Shown: positions 9 to 10,065 of the stretch, in pieces
Position numbering within the stretch: position 1 is the first letter of the stretch
Layout: each line of letters starts with the position of its first letter
DNA from: a virus
Taxonomy: Duplodnaviria > Heunggongvirae > Uroviricota > Caudoviricetes
Strand: one strand, 5' to 3'
IMG/VR virus record: IMGVR_UViG_2778261505_000002
Length of the DNA: 64,000 nt
Program-made: the position numbers and the translations under genes
Notes under the pieces: generated by a model
Told to the model about the DNA's origin: nothing
Seen by the model: only the letters and a program-made list of their open reading frames with translations
Databases searched by the model: none

Positions 9-500
9 ATGATTCTGGCTATTCGCAAGAATGTTGAGGGAGATGCCCCTTTCCATTTTAGCGAGATGAATGTGATCACACCTGATGGTTTCGAAATGCC
101 ATACCTGGGTAGACCGTATGTATTTGGCGTATTCGATTGCTGGATGTTGTGTCGGGACTATTTGAAGCGTGAGTTTAACGTCGAACTAAACCCGAACGCA
201 CACCTGCATATTCCATCGTGGTACACCGGCGATAACGACATTCTCGATCAGAACTACCGTAACGAGGGATTGGTACGGCTTGCACCCGGAACAGAGCCTC
301 AACGTGGGGACGTATTCTTTATCCAATACGGGAAAATGCCTGACCACTGCGCGGTTTATATCGGCGATGGAATGATTCTTCATCACCAGATCGACCGCCT
401 AAGTTGTCGTGCTTATTACGGCGGAATGTATCAGAAACATACGACGCATCACTTGCGTCACAGAGACTTGCTCAAGGGAGATGAGACGTGTCTGAGTTAG
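9..500 (+). CDS. Tail tip assembly protein, lambda gpK-like (NlpC/P60-type); probably 5'-truncated by the window edge
   Basis: NlpC/P60-like Cys motif (FDCWMLCRDY) and a His-containing C-terminal half; reading frame is open to position 1; sits directly upstream of gpI-like and gpJ-like genes. Confidence 0.65.
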   Translation: MILAIRKNVEGDAPFHFSEMNVITPDGFEMPYLGRPYVFGVFDCWMLCRDYLKREFNVELNPNAHLHIPSWYTGDNDILDQNYRNEGLVRLAPGTEPQRGDVFFIQYGKMPDHCAVYIGDGMILHHQIDRLSCRAYYGGMYQKHTTHHLRHRDLLKGDETCLS

Positions 501-1078
501 TTCATGTGCAGCTTGGCGGCCCTATGGCCAAACATTTTGGCCGCCACTGGCATCTAAAGGTGCGTAATACAAAACAAGCTCTGGATTTAATTGAGGCCAA
601 CAAGCCTGGGTTTAAAGCATGGATGAAGCGCAATATCAAAACCTATGACAGATACCACATCCAGATCACCAATAAACAGGGCCACAAGTGGTCTGTGGAC
701 GAGAGTGAATATCAGATGATGGGGCAGTCTGACAATATTGCAAAAATCCGCATTACACCTGTTCCGCGAGGAAGCGGTGGATCTGCTTTTGGATGGTTTC
801 AGACGGTTGTTGGAGCAGTATTAATGGTTGCCTCGATATGGGTGCCCGCTCTTGCGCCTCTCGGTTTGTCACTGATGATGGGCGGTATAGCGCAAATCAT
901 ATCTCCGCAAGCCACTAACGAAAGTGTGAGGCAGGCGGATAACTCGAACTCTTATTACTTTGATGGACCTCAAAACACAACAAACCAGGGGAACCCTGTA
1001 CAGCTTATCTATGGCGAGGAAATTTTAGTTGGCTCACAGGTCGTGAGTTCTTCTATCACCATCGACCAGCTTATGTAA
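488..1078 (+). CDS. Tail assembly protein, lambda gpI-like
   Basis: Position between K-like and J-like genes, 13-bp overlap with the upstream gene, Gly-rich hydrophobic C-terminal half typical of gpI. Confidence 0.6.
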   Translation: MSELVHVQLGGPMAKHFGRHWHLKVRNTKQALDLIEANKPGFKAWMKRNIKTYDRYHIQITNKQGHKWSVDESEYQMMGQSDNIAKIRITPVPRGSGGSAFGWFQTVVGAVLMVASIWVPALAPLGLSLMMGGIAQIISPQATNESVRQADNSNSYYFDGPQNTTNQGNPVQLIYGEEILVGSQVVSSSITIDQLM

Positions 1079-1089
1079 TCAAGGATTTT

Positions 1090-4000
1090 TTGGACATGGA
1101 ACAGTTCAAGAAGAAAAAATTACCGCTTCTTATTGCCGGTGCTGGTGGCAAGAAAAGTAAAAGCTCCAGCCGTACCCCGGTTGAAGCTGATGATACTGTC
1201 AATTCTCGTGCTATGGCAGCCATCCTCGACCTTCTTGGCGAGGGGGTTATCGGTGGCCTGGTAAATGGCGCAAAGTCGATCTTCATCGACGATTTACCGA
1301 TCTTGAATGAAGATGGCTCTTCCAACTTCAGCGGTATTACATGGGATTTTCGTGACGGCTCACAAGACCAGACGCCAATGGCTGGTTTTGATTTTGTTGA
1401 AACGCCTAAGTCCGTAAATATTCAGCTTAAAAAAACACACGACGTTACGGTTTCAATCGATAACGATGAAGCTGATCGCGTTCGTGTCATCATGAAATTC
1501 CCCTCTTTACGTAGCGTTGATAAAAGCTCTGGCGATACAAATGGCACTACGGTGAAGTACAAATTCCAGATCGCCAACGCAGACGCAACATTTTCTGATG
1601 TAGTGGCAGAAGGTGAGAAAAGCGTTGATATCACGCTAACGGCAAAGAAAACCGGCGTGTATTACCGTAGCTATGAGCTGAAACTGCCTAAGCCTGGTCG
1701 TGCATACAAGGTTAGGGTGATTCGTCTTACAGATGATAATAGTAGCCAGTACCTCTACAACGACACATGGGTTGATTCCATCGGTGAGATTGTCGACACG
1801 CCAATGAACTACCCTAACTCTGCTCTTGTTGGCTTGAAGGTCAATTCAGAGCAGTTTGGTAGCACAATGCCTTCCCGTTCGTATTTGGTGCGCGGTATCA
1901 AAATCCGAGTACCGTCAAACTACAACGAATACACCAATACTTATGTCGGCGTATGGGACGGTACTTTTAAGCTGTTGTCTTCTTCAAACCCTGCGTGGAT
2001 TCTCTACGATTTGCTTACCAATACTCGGTATGGTCTTGGGCAATTTGTGTCGGAATCCATGATTGACCTCGGCCAGCTCTACCAGATTGGTCGATATTGT
2101 GACGAAGAGGTCGATGATGGCTTTGGGGGTAAAGAGAAACGCTTTGCAATCAATACGCAGATCACCAGTCGACAAGACGCATACCGATTAATTCAGGATA
2201 TTGCCGGTGCATTCCGCGGCATGGTGTTTTGGGCTGGTGGCATGGTTAACATCATGCAGGATAGCCCATCAGATCCGGTAATGATGTTTACCAACTCCAA
2301 CGTCAAAGATGGACTGTTTACCTATAAAGGTTCTGCGCGTAAAGATCGCCCATCCGTTGCGCTCGTAACCTACAACAACAAGGAGGACGGTTATAAGCAA
2401 AATATCGAGTACGTTGAAGATCAGGACGCAATGCGCCGTTATGGTGAGCGTAAAACAGAAGTCGTAGCATTTGGATGTACAAGCCGAGGCCAGGCTCACC
2501 GAGTTGGTTTGTGGCTGTTGTATACCGCCAGAATGGAGTCGGATGTAATTACATTTACTGCCGGCTTAGACGCCTCATTTCTGATGCCTGGTGAAACCGT
2601 TCTGATTCAGAACAAATATCGTGCAGGTAAACGTAACTCCGGTCGAATTGTGGAGTTTACCAAAAACAGCATCACTCTCGATGCGCCTGTGTCGTTAGCT
2701 AAAAGCGGCAGCTTTATTCGGATATTGAATCAGGAAGGCAAAATCGTTGAACGCGATGTTCTTGAAACTGGCGAAAACATAACAAAGGTTACGTTTTCAA
2801 AAGCCCTGTCGTCAGCGGAAACGCCTGTTTTGAACGGTGTCTGGACAATTACAGAACCAGATCTCGAACCTATGCGCGTTCGCATCGTTAACATCGCACA
2901 GGGGGAAACGTCGGGTAGCTTTGACATCACCGCTGTTGAGAACAATCCGTCTAAATATGAGGCAATCGACAATGGTGCAACGCTGATCCCGCAGAATACG
3001 ACGGTATTGGACCCAACTTACTCCAAGCCATCTAATCTGCAAATCACTGAAGGGACTTATCTCTCAAGCCCGGGCAACCTGTCAGTAAAACTGACTGCAA
3101 CATGGGAAGGGAAATCTCCAGAGTATTGGATCAGTTGGCGACGTTCTGATGAAAACAATGTATCGAACTGGCAATCGGCGCGTGTAACCGAAGAGCAATA
3201 CGAAATCGTTAATGTCGCGGAGAATGGACGCTACGACTTCCAGCTGTATGCGGTTTCATTCAACGGTAAAAAAACAGAGATTATCAGTACCGTTTATCAG
3301 GTGTTGGGCACAATGACACCGCCTGATGCCCCAACGTCATTAACGGCCGTTGGAGACTATCGTAATGTGATACTGAATTGGGTTAATCCAGATTCGGTAG
3401 ACCTTGATCACATTAATGTTTACGCATCCCAGACCAACAATCTGGATACGGCGAAACTGATCGCAGAGTCTGCAAGCACCACCTTTACACATGCTGGTCT
3501 TGGGGATAGCGAAACGTGGTATTACTGGGTTCGAGCATCGAACAAGCGAGGTATGTTAAGTCCTCCGAACTCAAACTTGGGTACAGAGGCGACAACTCGC
3601 GATGTACTGTCGTTCCTGACTGGCAAAATTACATCTTCCGAGCTTGGTCAGGCTCTGCTTGAGGACATCAACAGCAAAGTCTCTCAAGAAGCAGTTGACG
3701 AGTTAAATGAGCATATCAACCAGAGCGTCGAATCTTTAGAGGGGGCGGTAAACGACGTTAAGGAAGATATAGCTGAATTAGATAAGCAGTTCAGCGATAA
3801 CCTCGCGGGTTTTGAAATAAAATTCAACGAGCGTAGCGATGCTTTGGAGAACGCACAAACCGAGCTTAAAGGTGAGGTTTCGGCAACGATTAACAAGGTC
3901 AATGAAGCGTTTGAAAAAATTGATGCTACTGATGCTGCAATTGTTGAAATCGAAAACACCGTATCTGAACACGATAAAGCTCTCGCTAATACAGTCGAGG

Positions 4001-5820
4001 CAATAAAGGCTGCAAGAGATGAAGCGGCGGCTCTTATTGCTAAGGAAAGCGAGGCTCGTGTTGAAGGTGATGCTGCAAACGCTAAACAACTGGAAGTGTT
4101 GCAGTCAACGGTAGAGGAAAGCTCCGCTGCCGTTGAAGAAATGAAAAAGACGGTTGCAGAGGTCGATCGTGCCAGTGCAGAACTGACTACGAACATTGAG
4201 GCTTTGGCCAAAACAAATATTGACCTGGCTCTTCGTCAAGATGAAGACCAGCACAAGCAGATGGTCAATAACGCGAAGATCGCAACAACACAGAAAACCT
4301 TTGCTGATGATATGTCTGCAATGGCCACGAAGGTTGAGGAAATTCGCGTAGAAATTGGCGAAGATATTAAGGCCAGTATTCTGGAAGAGTCCACCGCTCG
4401 TGCCGATGGCGATGAAGCGTTGGCAAAGCGTGTCACTCAGCTGCAATCTAAGTTTGAAGGAGATATCAGCGCGGCGATTAGTACAGAGCAGGAGGCTCGT
4501 ACATCTGCCGATGAAGCTCTGACGACACAAATCACTCAGCTTGAGTCGAAAGTAAGCAACGATATCGTCGCAGCTATTAAGGAAGAGCAAGAAGCCCGAG
4601 CAACGGAAGATTCGGCTCTGGCAAGCCAGATCACCCAACTTCAGGCAAAGGTTGATGATGATATTTCTGCTGCAATACGCAGTGAGCAGGAGGCCCGAGC
4701 AAGCGGGGACTCTGCGTTAGCCAAACAAATAAACCAGCTTCAGTCAAAGGTTGACGGTGATATATCCGCTGCCATCACTCAGGAGCAGGAGGCCAGAGCA
4801 AGTGCTGACCAGGCGCTCTCACGAGAAATTAACAGCCTGCGAGCACAAACCGGAACTGATATTGCCGCAGCGGTTGCTGTAGAGACAAAAGCAAGGACTG
4901 ATGCCGATAGTGCATTGTCTACCCAGATTACGTCTCTTACAGCAAAAGCTAATGATCTCAAGGCGTCTCTTGCCAGAGAAACAACGGCTCGTGCAGATGG
5001 TGATACCGCTTTAACAAAAGAGGTTTCAAGTTTAAAAGCACAGACAGCGAAAGATATTAGTGCGGCCGTTGCAGTTGAAACGCAGGCTCGAACTGATGCT
5101 GACTCGGCGTTGTCGTCTCAGATCACCAAGCTGACCTCTCAATACAAAGAGGATATTAAAGCGGCTGTAGCAACCGAAACGAAAACGCGTACAGAGCAAG
5201 ATGCTGCATTGGCGACTCAAATCACAAACTTAGAGTCTCAAACGGCAGCCAACATTTCCGCGGCGGTCACAACTGAAACGAAAGCGAGAACGCAGGCAGA
5301 TAATGCTCTGAGTGGGCGAATCGATACTCTGAAAGCAGAGGTGAATGGAAATACCGCGACAATTCAACAGCAGGCAACAGCTATTGCTGATACCAACAAA
5401 AAAGTGTCAACCGCGTGGACGTTGAAAATGGAGACTTCAACGAGCGGAGGGCAGAAGTATGTTGCCGGTATTGCGCTTGGTATTGACACCACTGGGCTAT
5501 CTCAGTTTTTGGTTCAGGCGGACAGGTTTGGTTTGGTCAACTCTGTTAACGGGAAGATCACAACGCCATTTGTTATCGAAAACAGTATCGCCTATATGAA
5601 TGGAGCGTATATCAAGGATGGCACAATCACCAATGCAAAAGTAGGCGATCTGCAATCTACCAATTTTGTTAGCGGTAGATCTGGATGGCGGTTCGGCAAA
5701 AATGGAACGCTTGAGATCAACGGTAATAGCGGCGGCAATGGGCGATTGGTTATAAATGGTCAGCGGATTGACGTTTATGACGATAACAACGTCTTACGAG
5801 TAAGAATTGGCCGTCTGTGA
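1090..5820 (+). CDS. Tail tip / host specificity protein, lambda gpJ-like (central tail fibre), with a coiled-coil tandem-repeat domain
   Basis: 1576 aa; N-terminus resembles lambda J; FN3-like middle section; about ten tandem ~33-aa repeats (EQEARxxxDxALxxQIxxLxSKVxxDIxAAI) between ~4380 and 5340. Confidence 0.8.
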   Translation: MDMEQFKKKKLPLLIAGAGGKKSKSSSRTPVEADDTVNSRAMAAILDLLGEGVIGGLVNGAKSIFIDDLPILNEDGSSNFSGITWDFRDGSQDQTPMAGFDFVETPKSVNIQLKKTHDVTVSIDNDEADRVRVIMKFPSLRSVDKSSGDTNGTTVKYKFQIANADATFSDVVAEGEKSVDITLTAKKTGVYYRSYELKLPKPGRAYKVRVIRLTDDNSSQYLYNDTWVDSIGEIVDTPMNYPNSALVGLKVNSEQFGSTMPSRSYLVRGIKIRVPSNYNEYTNTYVGVWDGTFKLLSSSNPAWILYDLLTNTRYGLGQFVSESMIDLGQLYQIGRYCDEEVDDGFGGKEKRFAINTQITSRQDAYRLIQDIAGAFRGMVFWAGGMVNIMQDSPSDPVMMFTNSNVKDGLFTYKGSARKDRPSVALVTYNNKEDGYKQNIEYVEDQDAMRRYGERKTEVVAFGCTSRGQAHRVGLWLLYTARMESDVITFTAGLDASFLMPGETVLIQNKYRAGKRNSGRIVEFTKNSITLDAPVSLAKSGSFIRILNQEGKIVERDVLETGENITKVTFSKALSSAETPVLNGVWTITEPDLEPMRVRIVNIAQGETSGSFDITAVENNPSKYEAIDNGATLIPQNTTVLDPTYSKPSNLQITEGTYLSSPGNLSVKLTATWEGKSPEYWISWRRSDENNVSNWQSARVTEEQYEIVNVAENGRYDFQLYAVSFNGKKTEIISTVYQVLGTMTPPDAPTSLTAVGDYRNVILNWVNPDSVDLDHINVYASQTNNLDTAKLIAESASTTFTHAGLGDSETWYYWVRASNKRGMLSPPNSNLGTEATTRDVLSFLTGKITSSELGQALLEDINSKVSQEAVDELNEHINQSVESLEGAVNDVKEDIAELDKQFSDNLAGFEIKFNERSDALENAQTELKGEVSATINKVNEAFEKIDATDAAIVEIENTVSEHDKALANTVEAIKAARDEAAALIAKESEARVEGDAANAKQLEVLQSTVEESSAAVEEMKKTVAEVDRASAELTTNIEALAKTNIDLALRQDEDQHKQMVNNAKIATTQKTFADDMSAMATKVEEIRVEIGEDIKASILEESTARADGDEALAKRVTQLQSKFEGDISAAISTEQEARTSADEALTTQITQLESKVSNDIVAAIKEEQEARATEDSALASQITQLQAKVDDDISAAIRSEQEARASGDSALAKQINQLQSKVDGDISAAITQEQEARASADQALSREINSLRAQTGTDIAAAVAVETKARTDADSALSTQITSLTAKANDLKASLARETTARADGDTALTKEVSSLKAQTAKDISAAVAVETQARTDADSALSSQITKLTSQYKEDIKAAVATETKTRTEQDAALATQITNLESQTAANISAAVTTETKARTQADNALSGRIDTLKAEVNGNTATIQQQATAIADTNKKVSTAWTLKMETSTSGGQKYVAGIALGIDTTGLSQFLVQADRFGLVNSVNGKITTPFVIENSIAYMNGAYIKDGTITNAKVGDLQSTNFVSGRSGWRFGKNGTLEINGNSGGNGRLVINGQRIDVYDDNNVLRVRIGRL

Positions 5821-5913: not shown

Positions 5914-8900
5914 ATGTGGTACAGGGAAGGTACTATCACATTTACACAGGGCAGCAATACTCTGGTTGGGGCAGGGACAGCCTGGAACGTAACAGCTAAT
6001 GGTGTGTTGCCGGGGATGATCGTCATTGGCCCCGACAATAAGCTGTATGAGATCAAGCGCGTAACCAGTGATACGAACATTGTTCTCTCAGAACCTTATA
6101 CCGGCGAAACTCAGTCTGAAGTTCCGTGCCGAATCATTACGACCTATGAAGGCGACTTAACACAGTTTAGCGCGCGCTTTACTGCGCTAATGTCGCGTAT
6201 ATCGGCTGATTCCAAGTCCATACGCAGTTGGTTGACTGCGCTGGATGAGGTGACAATCGAGCGTGAAGACGGTACAGAAGTGACCGTTAAGCCGCTAATG
6301 CAGATCGTCAACGAGCACAACGAAAACGTTGAGTGGTATAAAAATAACACTGACGCGATTGATGCTGCTGGCGACAAAGCTCGTGAGGCGGCGGCCAGTG
6401 CTGCCGCAGCAGCAAAAAGCGCCAATGCCGCTGGAGAAAAAGCCTCTCAAGCGTCTCAAAGTGCATCCGCTGCGGCATCCTCACAAAGTGCCGCAAGTGC
6501 GAGTGCAACTGCTGCGAAAAAATCTGAAACGAATGCTGCAGCGTCACAAAAATCTGCAGCCACTTCTGCATCCACCGCGACCACGAAGGCGTCAGAAGCT
6601 GCCACCTCAGCCCGGGATGCGGCGGCCTCAAAAGAGGCAGCGAAATCATCAGAAACGAGCGCAGCCTCGAGCGCCAGTAATGCCGCTTCCTCGGCAACGG
6701 CGGCAGGAAATTCCGCGAAGGCGGCAAAAACGTCCGAGACGAACGCCAGGTCTTCTGAAACGGCAGCGGGACAGAGCGCCTCGGCTGCGGCAGGCTCAAA
6801 AACAGCGGCTGCGTCGTCTGCCAGTGCCGCGTCAACAAGTGCCGGGCAGGCCTCAGCCAGTGCCACCGCCGCCGGAAAATCGGCAGAAAGTGCCGCATCG
6901 TCTGCTTCAACTGCCACAACGAAGGCTGGCCAAGCCACTGAACAGGCCAGCGCAGCAGCGAGGTCTGCTTCCGCAGCGAAGACATCCGAAACGAACGCGA
7001 AAGCGTCGGAAACCCGTGCAGAATCCTCAAAAACGGCAGCCGCATCGTCCGCCAGTTCGGCGGCGTCATCGGCATCATCGGCGTCTGCTTCAAAAGATGA
7101 GGCGACCAGACAGGCGTCAGCAGCGAAGGGCAGCGCCACGACGGCATCCACGAAAGCAACAGAGGCGGCAGGCAGTGCGACGGCAGCATCTCAGAGCAAA
7201 ACTGCTGCTGAATCCGCTGCGACCCGTGCGGAAGCTGCTGCTGATCGTGCTGAAGAGATTGCCGGTGCAGTTGCGATGGAAGACGCAAGCCTTACAACTA
7301 AAGGTGTTGTGAAACTTAGCAGTGCTGTCGACAGCACCAGTGAATCGCTGGCCGCAACGCCAAAAGCAGTTAAAGCAGCCAATGACAATGCGAATAGCAG
7401 GGTGCCATCTAACCGAAAAGTTAACGGTAAAGCACTGACTGCGGATATCAAATTAACGCCGAAAGATATTGGTACTTTAAATTCAGTAACGATGTCTTTC
7501 TCTGGCGGGGCAGGGTGGTTCAAACTGGCTACGGTTACCATGCCACAAGCGAGTTCCATCGTTTACATCGCATTGATTGGTGGCGCTGGTTACAACGTCG
7601 GCTCCCCACATCAGGCAGGCATTTCAGAACTGGTTCTACGAGCAGGCAATGGAAACCCCAAAGGGATTACAGGTGCTTTGTGGAAGCGTACAGCTGTCGG
7701 ATTAACGAATTTCGCCTGGATCAACACATCCGGCGATACATATGATATTTACGTTGAGATTGGCAATTATGCGACTCGTGTAAATATCCATTGGGATTGT
7801 ACTGCAAATGCGACAGTTTCTATTTATACCTCGCCAACATATTCAGCGAGTAAGCCTTCCAGCGTTACCGATGGTGTTGTTTATACGATGTATAGCACAC
7901 ATCAGAAACCGACGCCGTTAGATATTGGAGCACTGCCAACAACCGGAGGAACAGTTTCAGGTCCGTTGTCTGTTACAGGTGGATTAACTGGTTCATTGAA
8001 TGGTAATGCAAGTACAGCCACGAAATTGCAGACGGCAAGATCTATCGGTGGAGTTGTTTTCGACGGTTCTGCAAATATTAACCTTCCAGGTGTAAACACT
8101 ACGGGTAATCAGAACACCACTGGTAATGCTGCAACTGCTACAAAACTTCAGACGGCAAGAACTATCGGCGGCGTGAGCTTTGATGGTACTGCGAATATTA
8201 ATTTGCCAGGTGTTAATACGACTGGTAATCAGAACACAACGGGCAACGCGGCTACTGCTACGAAGTTGCAGACTGCGCGTACTATCAATGGGGTGTCGTT
8301 TGACGGCTCGGCAAATATTGCCTTGTCGCCAGCAAATATAGGTTGCCCGGCATCTCCTACTGGTTGGTTAACTACAGGAAGTAATGGAGGAGCAATAACG
8401 ACAGCCCAGTTAGTTACTTTGTTGCAAAATAACGGGGCATTCAGTACGAAAGCATGGATCGCTCGTTGTGCATGGGCGTATGCGAATAGTGCATCCATAC
8501 CAGACAGTGAAACTGGTTGTGGCATTATTCCACTGGCGGGTGCTGTGATAGAAGTATTCAGCAATAATACCAACAATTACACCATTCGAATAACAACGGC
8601 CACTACGACAAATGTCTCTGGTGCACTCACTAATGCGGAGTTTATCTATGTGTCTAATGGCTCAAGTTATTCACCTGGATGGCGCAGAGCGTATAACACT
8701 AGAAACAAACCAACAGCTTCTGATGTAGGAGCATTACCGCTTTCAGGTGGCACATTATCTGGAGGGTTAACGTCTTCTGGTGAGATCGTTTCAAAATATG
8801 CAAATGGTTTCCGCATTGCTTACGGTAACTTTGGGTTCTTTATCCGTAATGATGGGGCGAACACATATTTCCTGCTAACAGCATCAGGAGACACATTAGG

Positions 8901-10065
8901 TTCATGGAACGGTTTGCGACCTATTACAATTAATAATACCAGCGGTGCTGTATCAATTGGTAATGGACTAAATGTGACTGGTGGCGTAAATGGTAGTTTG
9001 AACGGTAATGCTTCAACAGCTACGAAGTTGCAAACAGCGAGAAACATCAATGGTGTTAAGTTTGATGGTTCAGGCGATATCAATATTAATACATTGGTAT
9101 CTCGTGGCCGAGTTACGGCGTTAAGCGGCTCTACTCAAGGCACTGCTGGCATTCAAATGTATGAGGTGTACAACAATAGCTACCCGACCACGTATGGCAA
9201 CGTATTGCACATGAAAGGTGCGAGTGCTGCTGGTGAGGGCGAGTTGCTTATTGGCTGGAGTGGTACGAGCGGTGCACATGCGCCGGTTTTCATTCGCTCC
9301 CGAAGAGATTACACAGGTGCGGCATGGTCAGCGTGGGCGCAGGTATATACATCAAGGGACTCCATTCCTGGTGTGAATGCCACTGGTAATCAGAACACTA
9401 CTGGTAATGCCGCAACCGCCACAAAATTGCAGACAGCAAGGAAAATTGCTGGTGTGGCGTTTGATGGCTCTGCCGATATAACTTTGACTGCGGCTAACCT
9501 TAATGCTTACACGAAAACAGAGGTAGCAAACCTTCTAAGTTCCTATGCAAGCAGATCATCACTGACAGGCTATAGTGGCAACCTGGATATTGTTGCTGAA
9601 ACACTGGTTGTCAAATCAGGCGGTAGTGGAGGGTTTGCTATATGGGATATTGGCACAACTACTAGCGGTGCCAATATGTACATTGATCCAAACCCAGGTA
9701 TCAATACAGTTTGGCGTTCAACGTCTTCAAGGCGCTATAAAAAGGATATTGAAACATTACAAGATCGATATGCTGATGAACTTTTGTCATTAAGACCTGT
9801 TTGGTATCGTTCAATTTGTCGAGGTGACCGAAAGGATTGGGGGTATTACGGCCTTATTGCTGAAGAGGTTGGTGAGATTGCCCCGCAATATGTCCATTGG
9901 CGTGAACCAACAAATAATGATTCTCCAGAAGATATTTCCTCAAATGGTATGGTCGCTGAAGGAGTGATGTATGAGCGTTTGGTTGTACCACTCATTCATC
10001 ATATTCAGCAATTGACCAAAAGGGTTGAGGAGCTTGAAACGAAGTTAAATTCACCTAAAGAATAA
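5914..10065 (+). CDS. Tail fibre protein with C-terminal intramolecular chaperone (peptidase S74-like) domain
   Basis: 1383 aa; Ala/Ser-rich repeats (SETNA...); repeated NTTGNAATATKLQTARxIGGVxFDGxANI modules; C-terminal segment (YKKDIETL...GLIAEEV...ELETKLN) typical of the auto-cleaving chaperone domain of endosialidase/T5 pb1-type fibres. Confidence 0.8.
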   Translation: MWYREGTITFTQGSNTLVGAGTAWNVTANGVLPGMIVIGPDNKLYEIKRVTSDTNIVLSEPYTGETQSEVPCRIITTYEGDLTQFSARFTALMSRISADSKSIRSWLTALDEVTIEREDGTEVTVKPLMQIVNEHNENVEWYKNNTDAIDAAGDKAREAAASAAAAAKSANAAGEKASQASQSASAAASSQSAASASATAAKKSETNAAASQKSAATSASTATTKASEAATSARDAAASKEAAKSSETSAASSASNAASSATAAGNSAKAAKTSETNARSSETAAGQSASAAAGSKTAAASSASAASTSAGQASASATAAGKSAESAASSASTATTKAGQATEQASAAARSASAAKTSETNAKASETRAESSKTAAASSASSAASSASSASASKDEATRQASAAKGSATTASTKATEAAGSATAASQSKTAAESAATRAEAAADRAEEIAGAVAMEDASLTTKGVVKLSSAVDSTSESLAATPKAVKAANDNANSRVPSNRKVNGKALTADIKLTPKDIGTLNSVTMSFSGGAGWFKLATVTMPQASSIVYIALIGGAGYNVGSPHQAGISELVLRAGNGNPKGITGALWKRTAVGLTNFAWINTSGDTYDIYVEIGNYATRVNIHWDCTANATVSIYTSPTYSASKPSSVTDGVVYTMYSTHQKPTPLDIGALPTTGGTVSGPLSVTGGLTGSLNGNASTATKLQTARSIGGVVFDGSANINLPGVNTTGNQNTTGNAATATKLQTARTIGGVSFDGTANINLPGVNTTGNQNTTGNAATATKLQTARTINGVSFDGSANIALSPANIGCPASPTGWLTTGSNGGAITTAQLVTLLQNNGAFSTKAWIARCAWAYANSASIPDSETGCGIIPLAGAVIEVFSNNTNNYTIRITTATTTNVSGALTNAEFIYVSNGSSYSPGWRRAYNTRNKPTASDVGALPLSGGTLSGGLTSSGEIVSKYANGFRIAYGNFGFFIRNDGANTYFLLTASGDTLGSWNGLRPITINNTSGAVSIGNGLNVTGGVNGSLNGNASTATKLQTARNINGVKFDGSGDININTLVSRGRVTALSGSTQGTAGIQMYEVYNNSYPTTYGNVLHMKGASAAGEGELLIGWSGTSGAHAPVFIRSRRDYTGAAWSAWAQVYTSRDSIPGVNATGNQNTTGNAATATKLQTARKIAGVAFDGSADITLTAANLNAYTKTEVANLLSSYASRSSLTGYSGNLDIVAETLVVKSGGSGGFAIWDIGTTTSGANMYIDPNPGINTVWRSTSSRRYKKDIETLQDRYADELLSLRPVWYRSICRGDRKDWGYYGLIAEEVGEIAPQYVHWREPTNNDSPEDISSNGMVAEGVMYERLVVPLIHHIQQLTKRVEELETKLNSPKE

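Follow-up and report, generated by a model that had tools for sequence, protein, structure and literature searches.

A ten-unit repeat in the central tail fibre protein of an SSU5-like Escherichia coli phage-plasmid: a proposed modular and metastable coiled-coil shaft

Introduction

The window analysed here is a 64,000-nucleotide stretch of Caudoviricetes DNA (IMG/VR record IMGVR_UViG_2778261505_000002) from an element that, by sequence comparison, is an SSU5-like E. coli phage-plasmid. On its plus strand, 1096..5820 encodes a gpJ/TipJ-type tail-tip (central fibre) protein of 1574 aa, referred to as J. The distal part of J carries ten tandem units of 33 residues. With moderate confidence, drawn from structural models and from analogy with solved tail fibres, we read this array as part of a trimeric coiled-coil shaft that is modular and probably metastable.

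Of an alpha-helical shaft of ~570 residues between the fibronectin type III (FNIII) domains and the beta-structured tip, the array would make up the ~330 residues at the distal end. Three J chains would wind into a parallel three-stranded coiled coil, as expected from the trimeric gpJ homologues in solved tails. Each 33-residue unit would make 9 helical turns and span ~4.9 nm, giving ~49 nm for ten units; with a rise of 0.148 nm per residue, the shaft as a whole would reach ~85 nm. The shaft is probably metastable because every unit can be read as a beta-hairpin too: it contains two SxSxxMxxLxS motifs of 11 residues, oppositely oriented, with G/N/D-rich turns between them. On receptor contact, the coiled coil would collapse, with the C-terminal PF09327 domain as the seed, into a trimeric beta-prism. 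The collapse would shorten the fibre by ~3.9 nm per unit and open the tail tip. The number of units may then be matched to the surface layers of the host.

A switch of this kind was described in 2026 for the central fibre of the F7 pyocin. There, a 163-residue coiled coil converts to a beta-prism, the tip opens, and the tape measure protein is ejected (PMC12874032). Glutamine substituted at the small-residue “S” positions of the motif SxSxxMxxLxS blocks killing and leaves assembly unaffected. The motif alternates in orientation, and Glu or Asp at the M position pairs with Arg at i±4 (PMC12874032). Predictions extend the switch to 21 of 24 siphophage central fibres, lambda and T5 being without it; the experimental case is a Pseudomonas tailocin only, and generality rests on the predictions (PMC12874032). 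The pyocin papers do not present the region as a tandem repeat that varies in copy number, the word “repeat” occurring 0 times in PMC12874032, and a search of the literature on SSU5 tails returned nothing on the J shaft.

The Repeat Array

The array lies at 4387..5373 on the plus strand (aa 1098–1426), as delimited by row layout, a hidden Markov model (HMM) of the unit, and lag identity. Units start at 4387, 4486, 4585, 4684, 4783, 4882, 4978, 5077, 5176, and 5275. All are 33 residues (99 nt) long except unit 6, which has 32 residues (96 nt). Six positions, E1, R5, D9, A11, L12, and L19, are invariant in all units, and A4, I16, D26, I27, A29, A30, and I/V31 are nearly so. The initial annotation had described about ten tandem 33-residue units near 4380–5340, in the C-terminal third of a gpJ-like protein, and had given a consensus for the unit. 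Each of these points agrees with the ten units mapped here, with their invariant residues, and with the domains found in the 1574-aa open reading frame (ORF).

The periodicity of the protein is strong. Identity at a lag of 33 residues is 0.48, compared with 0.10 ± 0.017 in shuffles (z = 22.6), which rules out chance or low complexity as the source of the period. For the DNA, identity at a lag of 99 nt is 0.526, compared with 0.29 in codon shuffles (z = 15.8). The repeats had also been called near-perfect at the level of DNA, and this description has to be given up. Pairwise identity of the units averages 51% in DNA (range 38–69%) and 47% in protein (maximum 76%), and the longest exact DNA word common to two units is 12 nt. 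Units 3–5 (4585..4881, plus strand) are the most alike in the identity matrices, reaching 69% in nucleotides and 76% in amino acids. Tandem Repeats Finder (TRF), run at default settings and at a minimum score of 30, reported no 99-bp array, and a gapless repeat finder recovered just 3–4 units at 62–74% identity. Third codon positions at lag 99 are 35.5% identical. Given this third-position value, the low DNA identity, and the shortness of the shared words, the units are old, diverged duplications kept by selection on the protein.

The 33-residue unit is without a curated Pfam family. A Pfam search restricted to the array yielded nothing but coiled-coil noise below the threshold, such as Mitofilin at 23.5 bits against a cut-off of 27.4 bits. 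The database label “DUF1983 protein” thus conceals an uncurated repeat family that is present in thousands of protein clusters.

Layout of the Shaft within J

Four Pfam domains frame the array. These are FNIII-A_GpJ (PF24801, aa 101–235, E = 1e-29), Phage-tail_3 (PF13550, aa 357–520, E = 2e-35), FN3 (PF00041, aa 744–823), and Phage_Tail_Tip (PF09327, formerly DUF1983, aa 1422–1556, E = 1.4e-41). Sequence searches of the PDB place the hub and FNIII part of J (1153..3672, plus strand; aa 20–859) colinear with residues 3–836 of lambda gpJ (8iyk_J, E = 2.6e-127). Similar stretches align to the F2 pyocin fibre (25vf_A, J aa 19–858 to 9–843) and to gp33 of phage T1 (9l9p_S, J aa 14–828 to 7–814). 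At the other end lies the C-terminal central-straight-fibre or tail-tip domain PF09327 (5359..5763, plus strand), which is all-beta and has beta strands in both AlphaFold2 models discussed below. This tip region (aa 1418–1546) aligns to lambda J 840–971, to F2 pyocin 1075–1193, and to T1 gp33.

The ~560 residues in between (aa ~860–1417) are without a counterpart in lambda gpJ. Since lambda residues 3–836 and 840–971 flank them, the shaft counts as inserted sequence when J is compared with lambda. In lambda gpJ (PDB 8IYK, 8XCG–8XCK) the hub, FNIII, and PF09327 domains are colinear with those of J and the gene order M-L-K-I-J is the same, but no helical shaft is present, and the segment homologous to J aa 1418 directly follows residue 836. 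Its C-terminal domain binds LamB, and the protein reportedly works without a large fold switch (PMC12874032).

The part of the shaft next to the FNIII domains (3598..4386, plus strand; aa ~835–1097) is non-repetitive. It is predicted as helix by AlphaFold2, has a hydrophobic period of 3.56 residues, and contains no Pro. Within it, a solitary degenerate unit at aa ~984–1014 (nt ~4045–4137, plus strand) matches the unit HMM 114 aa upstream of the array. An indel of 7 aa, the length of one heptad, is also found here (window ~3745–3765, J aa ~884–890, AVNDVKE), and it separates the window-type J from the type of CMS-2020a SCU-175 and PhiR41_1. Judged by its size, it would preserve the register of a coiled coil.

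A predicted helix break at 4255..4290 on the plus strand (aa ~1054–1065, RQDEDQHKQMVN, adjoining the conserved NIDLALRQDEDQHKQ) is the sole non-helical, low-pLDDT stretch of the ~570-aa shaft in the AlphaFold2 model. The surrounding region, at window ~4234–4290 (J aa ~1047–1065), reads NIDLALRQDEDQHKQMVN. Its sequence is kept in all SSU5-like alleles, including those with a single unit. By analogy, the conserved break may be a kink or a docking site for side fibres, because the side fibres of the F2 pyocin dock at a kink in its shaft (PMC13455828).

Helix and Beta Conformations of the Array

The composition of the array is that of a long helix. It contains 20% Ala, 2.4% Gly, and 0% Pro, and Pro is missing over ~580 aa. 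Hydrophobic residues recur every 3.65 residues, close to 11/3, so that 33 residues correspond to three hendecads. An AlphaFold2 model of aa 829–1574 from an alignment of 17 sequences places helices at aa 834–1053 and 1066–1406, interrupted once, by the conserved RQDEDQHKQ; beta strands follow from ~aa 1411. The pLDDT averages 65 and is ~60–79 in the array helix (aa 1066–1406).

A second AlphaFold2 model, of aa 1263–1574 (312 aa) with 67 more diverse sequences, folds the array as an antiparallel beta-meander. Its strands of 13–15 residues, two per unit, coincide with both registers of the switch motif, and the turns fall at conserved GD/ND/KD/AD positions. Mean pLDDT is 86.9 and pTM is 0.69. 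The initial annotation had proposed a long alpha-helical rod and named structure prediction as a check. The outcome is divided: the absence of Pro, the period of 3.65, the first model, and the coiled coils of the pyocins agree with a helix, and the second model is beta. As models, the two runs mirror the dual prediction reported for the F7 pyocin, with the qualification that both are of monomers and of unequal constructs, so that the beta model is not as such a prism.

The motif itself is present in both orientations. SxSxxMxxLxS was scored on the ten units over all 66 registers and orientations, with a background fit of 0.41 ± 0.20. Unit positions 11–21 fit it forward at 100% (A-x-[AST]-x-x-[IV]-x-x-L-x-[SA]), and positions 29–6' of the next unit fit it in reverse at 98% (A-x-[IV]-x-x-E-x-x-A-x-[AT]). 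In the reverse motif, E1 takes the M position with R5 at i+4 in 10/10 units. J also has a high-propensity coiled-coil segment between its FNIII domains and its C-terminal beta domain. Residues 927–1193 of the F2 pyocin fibre align to J aa 1274–1546, which are the distal units and the tip, at E = 2e-22; the F7 study took as homologues BLAST matches of E < 1e-6 to F7 residues 816 to the end. J is therefore assigned to the recently described class of central fibres with an alpha-helical shaft, and is probably fold-switching.

The F-type pyocin fibres (F2 PyoF10, PDB 25VF; F7) are the closest of the known systems. Their shaft likewise lies between the FNIII and C-terminal beta-prism domains of a gpJ-like protein, and that of F2 has been solved as a three-stranded coiled coil termed the “alpha-helical shaft” (PMC13455828). 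The unit sequence of F2 is alike, e.g., “SEQTARANADSALAQRIDTVQAS...”. They have in common with J the motif SxSxxMxxLxS, including the Glu at M and the Arg at i+4. AlphaFold predicts either helix or beta for the pyocin shaft, and the two monomer models of J, made from unequal constructs, likewise divide into helix and beta. The differences are in size and setting. The shaft is ~560 aa in J and ~230 aa in F2, and the switching segment of F7 is 163 aa (~5 units), compared with 10 tandem units here. J belongs to a DNA-injecting temperate E. coli phage-plasmid, whereas the F-type pyocins are tailocins, and the tip domain of J runs to the end of the protein, with no sign, although no search was aimed at them, of separate receptor-binding proteins like PyoF11/12.

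Phage T1 offers a second comparison. Its gp33 (PDB 9L9P) has a gpJ-like hub, then a long C-terminal extension and a homologous tip domain. The near-identical 33-aa repeats of gp33, “SREIDQLKAQIGDDIQASLTDIREVIATETEAL”, align to units 3–5 of J, and gp33 863–1168 aligns to the distal units and tip of J at E = 8e-28. T1 has ~3–4 such units. Residues 821–1172 of gp33 are too flexible to resolve, and the fibre modelled by AF3 is ~37 nm long (PMC11945409).

A static spacer rod is the alternative that survives best, and we consider it possible if rather unlikely. Here, a stable trimeric coiled coil would hold the tip at a fixed distance, and the number of units would tune reach through O-antigen or capsule with no switch. 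The helical features and the helix prediction suit such a rod, as does the coiled-coil shaft of the F2 pyocin, which also serves as a scaffold for side fibres (PMC13455828). Insertions and deletions of whole units, like the 7-aa indel, preserve the register of the coiled coil. However, the fold-switch motif fits the units in both orientations at 98–100%, and conserved G/D turns and buried E1–R5 pairs would be odd in a purely structural coiled coil. The beta-meander is predicted for the same residues with greater model confidence. Moreover, the homologous shaft of F7 does switch and needs the switch for activity (PMC12874032).

The reverse alternative is a constitutive beta fibre: at no stage in the virion would the array be helical, and it would instead run on into PF09327 as a long triangular beta-prism or beta-helix, like the lambda central straight fibre. 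The model from the deeper alignment is all-beta at pLDDT 75–94, and its best structural matches in a Foldseek search of the PDB are beta fibres, namely the lambda central tail fibre (8xcj) and the tip fibre of SU10. This reading is nonetheless improbable. Against it stand the amphipathic period of 3.65 residues, the 20% Ala, and the absence of Pro, and the homologous segments are coiled coils in two experimental pyocin structures. For F7, too, AlphaFold at full alignment depth returned the prism alone, yet before ejection that shaft is a coiled coil (PMC12874032).

Several points weigh against the metastable coiled-coil shaft as well. Both AlphaFold2 models are of monomers, and the difference between helix and beta is confounded by construct length and alignment depth. 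Alignments of repeat arrays can be register-shifted, which may bias the inference of contacts. Beyond the lambda and SU10 tip fibres, the Foldseek matches of the beta model are limited to generic beta-sheets (porins, ApoB). The evidence for fold switching is that of a single preprint, concerned with a Pseudomonas tailocin, whose authors point out that lambda and T5 work without a switch (PMC12874032). Finally, the shaft of J is more than twice the length of that of F7, and its proximal 260 aa are without a repeat.

Unit Number among Relatives

Units in relatives were counted with the HMM of the 33-aa unit. Ten units are present in J of the window, of phage Cyrano, and of CMS-2020a. Nine are found in PhiR41_1, CP081792, CP027358, and eight further protein records; six in the Salmonella, Cronobacter, and Yersinia forms; five in another E. 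coli allele; and four in an S. Typhi form. The common E. coli allele of 1228/1229 aa has a single unit. A comparison of copy number among relatives had been proposed as a check on the repeat, and with 1, 4, 5, 6, 9, 10, or more units the number is not invariant.

Three nine-unit forms carry independent, exact deletions of 99 bp, all inside units 3–5. The microhomologies at the deletion junctions are 3, 10, and 11 nt. The L006-type deletion was seen again in eight further protein records. The nine-unit forms are losses rather than failed gains, because the parental units had themselves diverged. A recent duplication was considered for P0027/L008, in which three units reach ~90% protein identity, and was set aside as their DNA is just 73% identical.

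The single-unit allele differs in another manner. Compared with J of the window, P0054 shows 100% identity in its first ~800 aa, ~96% in the tip domain, and just 45–80% in the proximal shaft. Since its flanks are near-identical and the proximal shaft is divergent, the shaft appears to behave as an exchangeable cassette, and the difference between ten units and one looks like the exchange of a whole cassette. P0054 and P0040 represent the E. coli J of 1228–1229 aa, and P0054 is a mosaic relative to 1096–5820 of the window.

Within the allele group of the window, copy number is almost fixed and not hypervariable, with ten units kept in about 160 of 166 plasmid records. The group was sampled through 60 records spread over 166 PLSDB plasmid records. 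In 58 of the 60, the span across the array has exactly the 1187 nt of the full ten-unit form, and one record has 99 nt less. Two known deletion junctions were found in 1 and 3 records, respectively (4/166, in 2 lineages). These came from 80-nt probes across the junctions, for which only the band of ≥99% identity is informative, as units cross-align at ~88%. A count of probes by “coverage ≥ 80%” is uninformative for the same set, and the span lengths of the 60 records were used instead.

The unit reaches far beyond this group. The wider family comprises 2984 clusters at 50% identity (E ≤ 0.001). Among 145 representatives, the number of units per protein is 0–24, with tandem runs of up to 14. 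In the same 145 homologues (P0136–P0280), the spacing between units is 32 aa in 332 cases, 33 aa in 50, and 36 aa in 41. The period of 33 aa (3 × 11) seems particular to SSU5-like and T1-like lineages.

The initial annotation expected the number of repeats to vary by slipped-strand or homologous recombination. Differences by whole units among relatives bear out the variation, and the proposed means fit poorly with the diverged DNA, the junction microhomologies of 3–11 nt, the exchange of cassettes, and the near-fixed allele group. As part of the coiled-coil shaft model, and with the same moderate confidence, unit number would change through rare in-register losses of one unit where short microhomologies occur, through old duplications, and through recombinational exchange of whole shaft cassettes between conserved flanks. 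RecA-type homologous recombination, or slippage between units as in a contingency locus, is not favoured because the DNA repeats are not near-perfect. J resembles contingency loci in having an in-frame tandem repeat, in a gene for interaction with surfaces, that differs among strains by whole units; however, a hypervariable tract with high-frequency slipped-strand mispairing and length heterogeneity within phage populations is very improbable, since set against the three independent one-unit deletions in close relatives and the recurrence of the L006 type are units with ≤12 nt of exact identity (51% on average, 69% at most, and negative in TRF), a full span in nearly all sampled records with only rare deletions and swaps, known nine-unit junctions confined to two lineages, and, in L008, diverged DNA even in the units most similar in protein.

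Implications of a Modular Shaft

A more specific proposal is a tunable spring that needs no ATP and has the 32/33-residue unit as its quantum. Per unit, ~4.9 nm of coiled coil would convert to one beta-hairpin, adding ~1 nm to the height of the prism. Ten units would then contract by ~39 nm, drawing the tip of the tail down to the outer membrane and opening it. The SSU5-like J alleles of 1, 4, 5, 6, 9, and 10 units, with near-identical hubs and tips, would amount to an allelic series whose stroke and stored energy are fitted to the thickness of the surface layers. Taken together, these three statements are tentative, and we would sooner doubt than assert them as a set.

Natural alleles that differ in unit number (10 compared with 9, and 10 compared with 1 on identical hubs) are suited to tests of reach, stroke, and stored energy. 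J has a particularly long and clearly modular shaft for the F7-type class, in an element that is widespread in E. coli, and in its putative switching segment one repeat unit corresponds to one hairpin. Phage-plasmids of the SSU5 type occur commonly in clinical Enterobacteriaceae, and resistance genes can be part of their cargo; what sets their host reach therefore matters in practice.

Source Element and Neighbouring Genes

The assignment of the element and of J follows from the identities of J, the gene order of Cyrano, and matches in NCBI. J is 95% identical to J of the Escherichia phages CMS-2020a and Cyrano, and SSU5 is more distant. Its gene reaches 99.8% identity with genes on ~110-kb non-mobilizable E. 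coli plasmids. An identical protein occurs in NCBI on 35 contigs under the name “DUF1983 domain-containing / phage tail protein”, and PHROGs labels the 1574-aa protein “central tail fiber J”. The annotated order in Cyrano is tape measure, M, L, K, I, J, and side fibre, and that in PhiR41_1 is likewise. In the window, J starts with ATG at 1096, with a TTG in the same frame at 1090. An I-like ORF (488..1078) lies upstream, and a 1383-aa fibre ORF (5914..10065, plus strand) lies downstream.

Two records bear on the availability of this J type. The plasmid of E. coli LF82 (NC_011917.1) and phage Cyrano (OV696614.1) are each 108,379 bp and have the same ten-unit J; from their equal size and shared J, Cyrano appears to be the LF82 plasmid. 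If true, an inducible representative of the ten-unit type is at hand. In two other plasmids, J is interrupted by insertion sequences, of the IS100/IS21 family in NZ_CP035843.1 (H88) and of the ISEc23/IS66 family in NZ_CP124394.1 (H121). Some SSU5-like phage-plasmids are therefore probably tail-defective.

Antisense Open Reading Frames

The ORF list holds long antisense frames on the minus strand at 3684..4211, 3778..4089, and 4105..4638, the last of 177 aa in the codon-complement frame. The initial annotation regarded the antisense ORFs as artefacts of the repeat. They are artefacts, of codon composition and not of the repeat. Most of the long ones lie upstream of the array, and the longest inside 4640–5340 has 62 aa. 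The ORF at 4105..4638 mirrors a stretch of 204 codons that lacks the sense codons TTA, CTA, and TCA; its frame is interrupted in relatives of 98.9% identity and gone in those of 82% identity. In codon shuffles of the shaft, open antisense runs average 154 and 137 codons, giving P = 0.12 for 4105..4638 and P = 0.14 for 3684..4211. A Pfam search of the antisense ORFs gave no match. With no such match, one frame broken in relatives, and lengths like those of shuffles, real genes are ruled out as an explanation. At 3684..4211, a frame of 169–184 codons is open in all six J alleles compared, some of them just 82% identical.

Further Observations

Many J proteins of this type in NCBI and Logan are “partial”: they start or stop where a contig ends, at places that vary but lie within or close to the shaft, and some of these contigs are ~100 kb long and resemble whole plasmids. 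Short-read assemblies seem to break often at the J shaft, and sequence in common with other J genes of the same genome is one possible cause. The side tail fibre gene downstream of J (5914..10065, plus strand), annotated as P1 S-like in Cyrano, has a tandem repeat of its own at 8013–8319. This repeat of 120 bp (40 aa) is present in 2.2–2.5 copies of 74–76% identity and, unlike the array of J, is seen by TRF.

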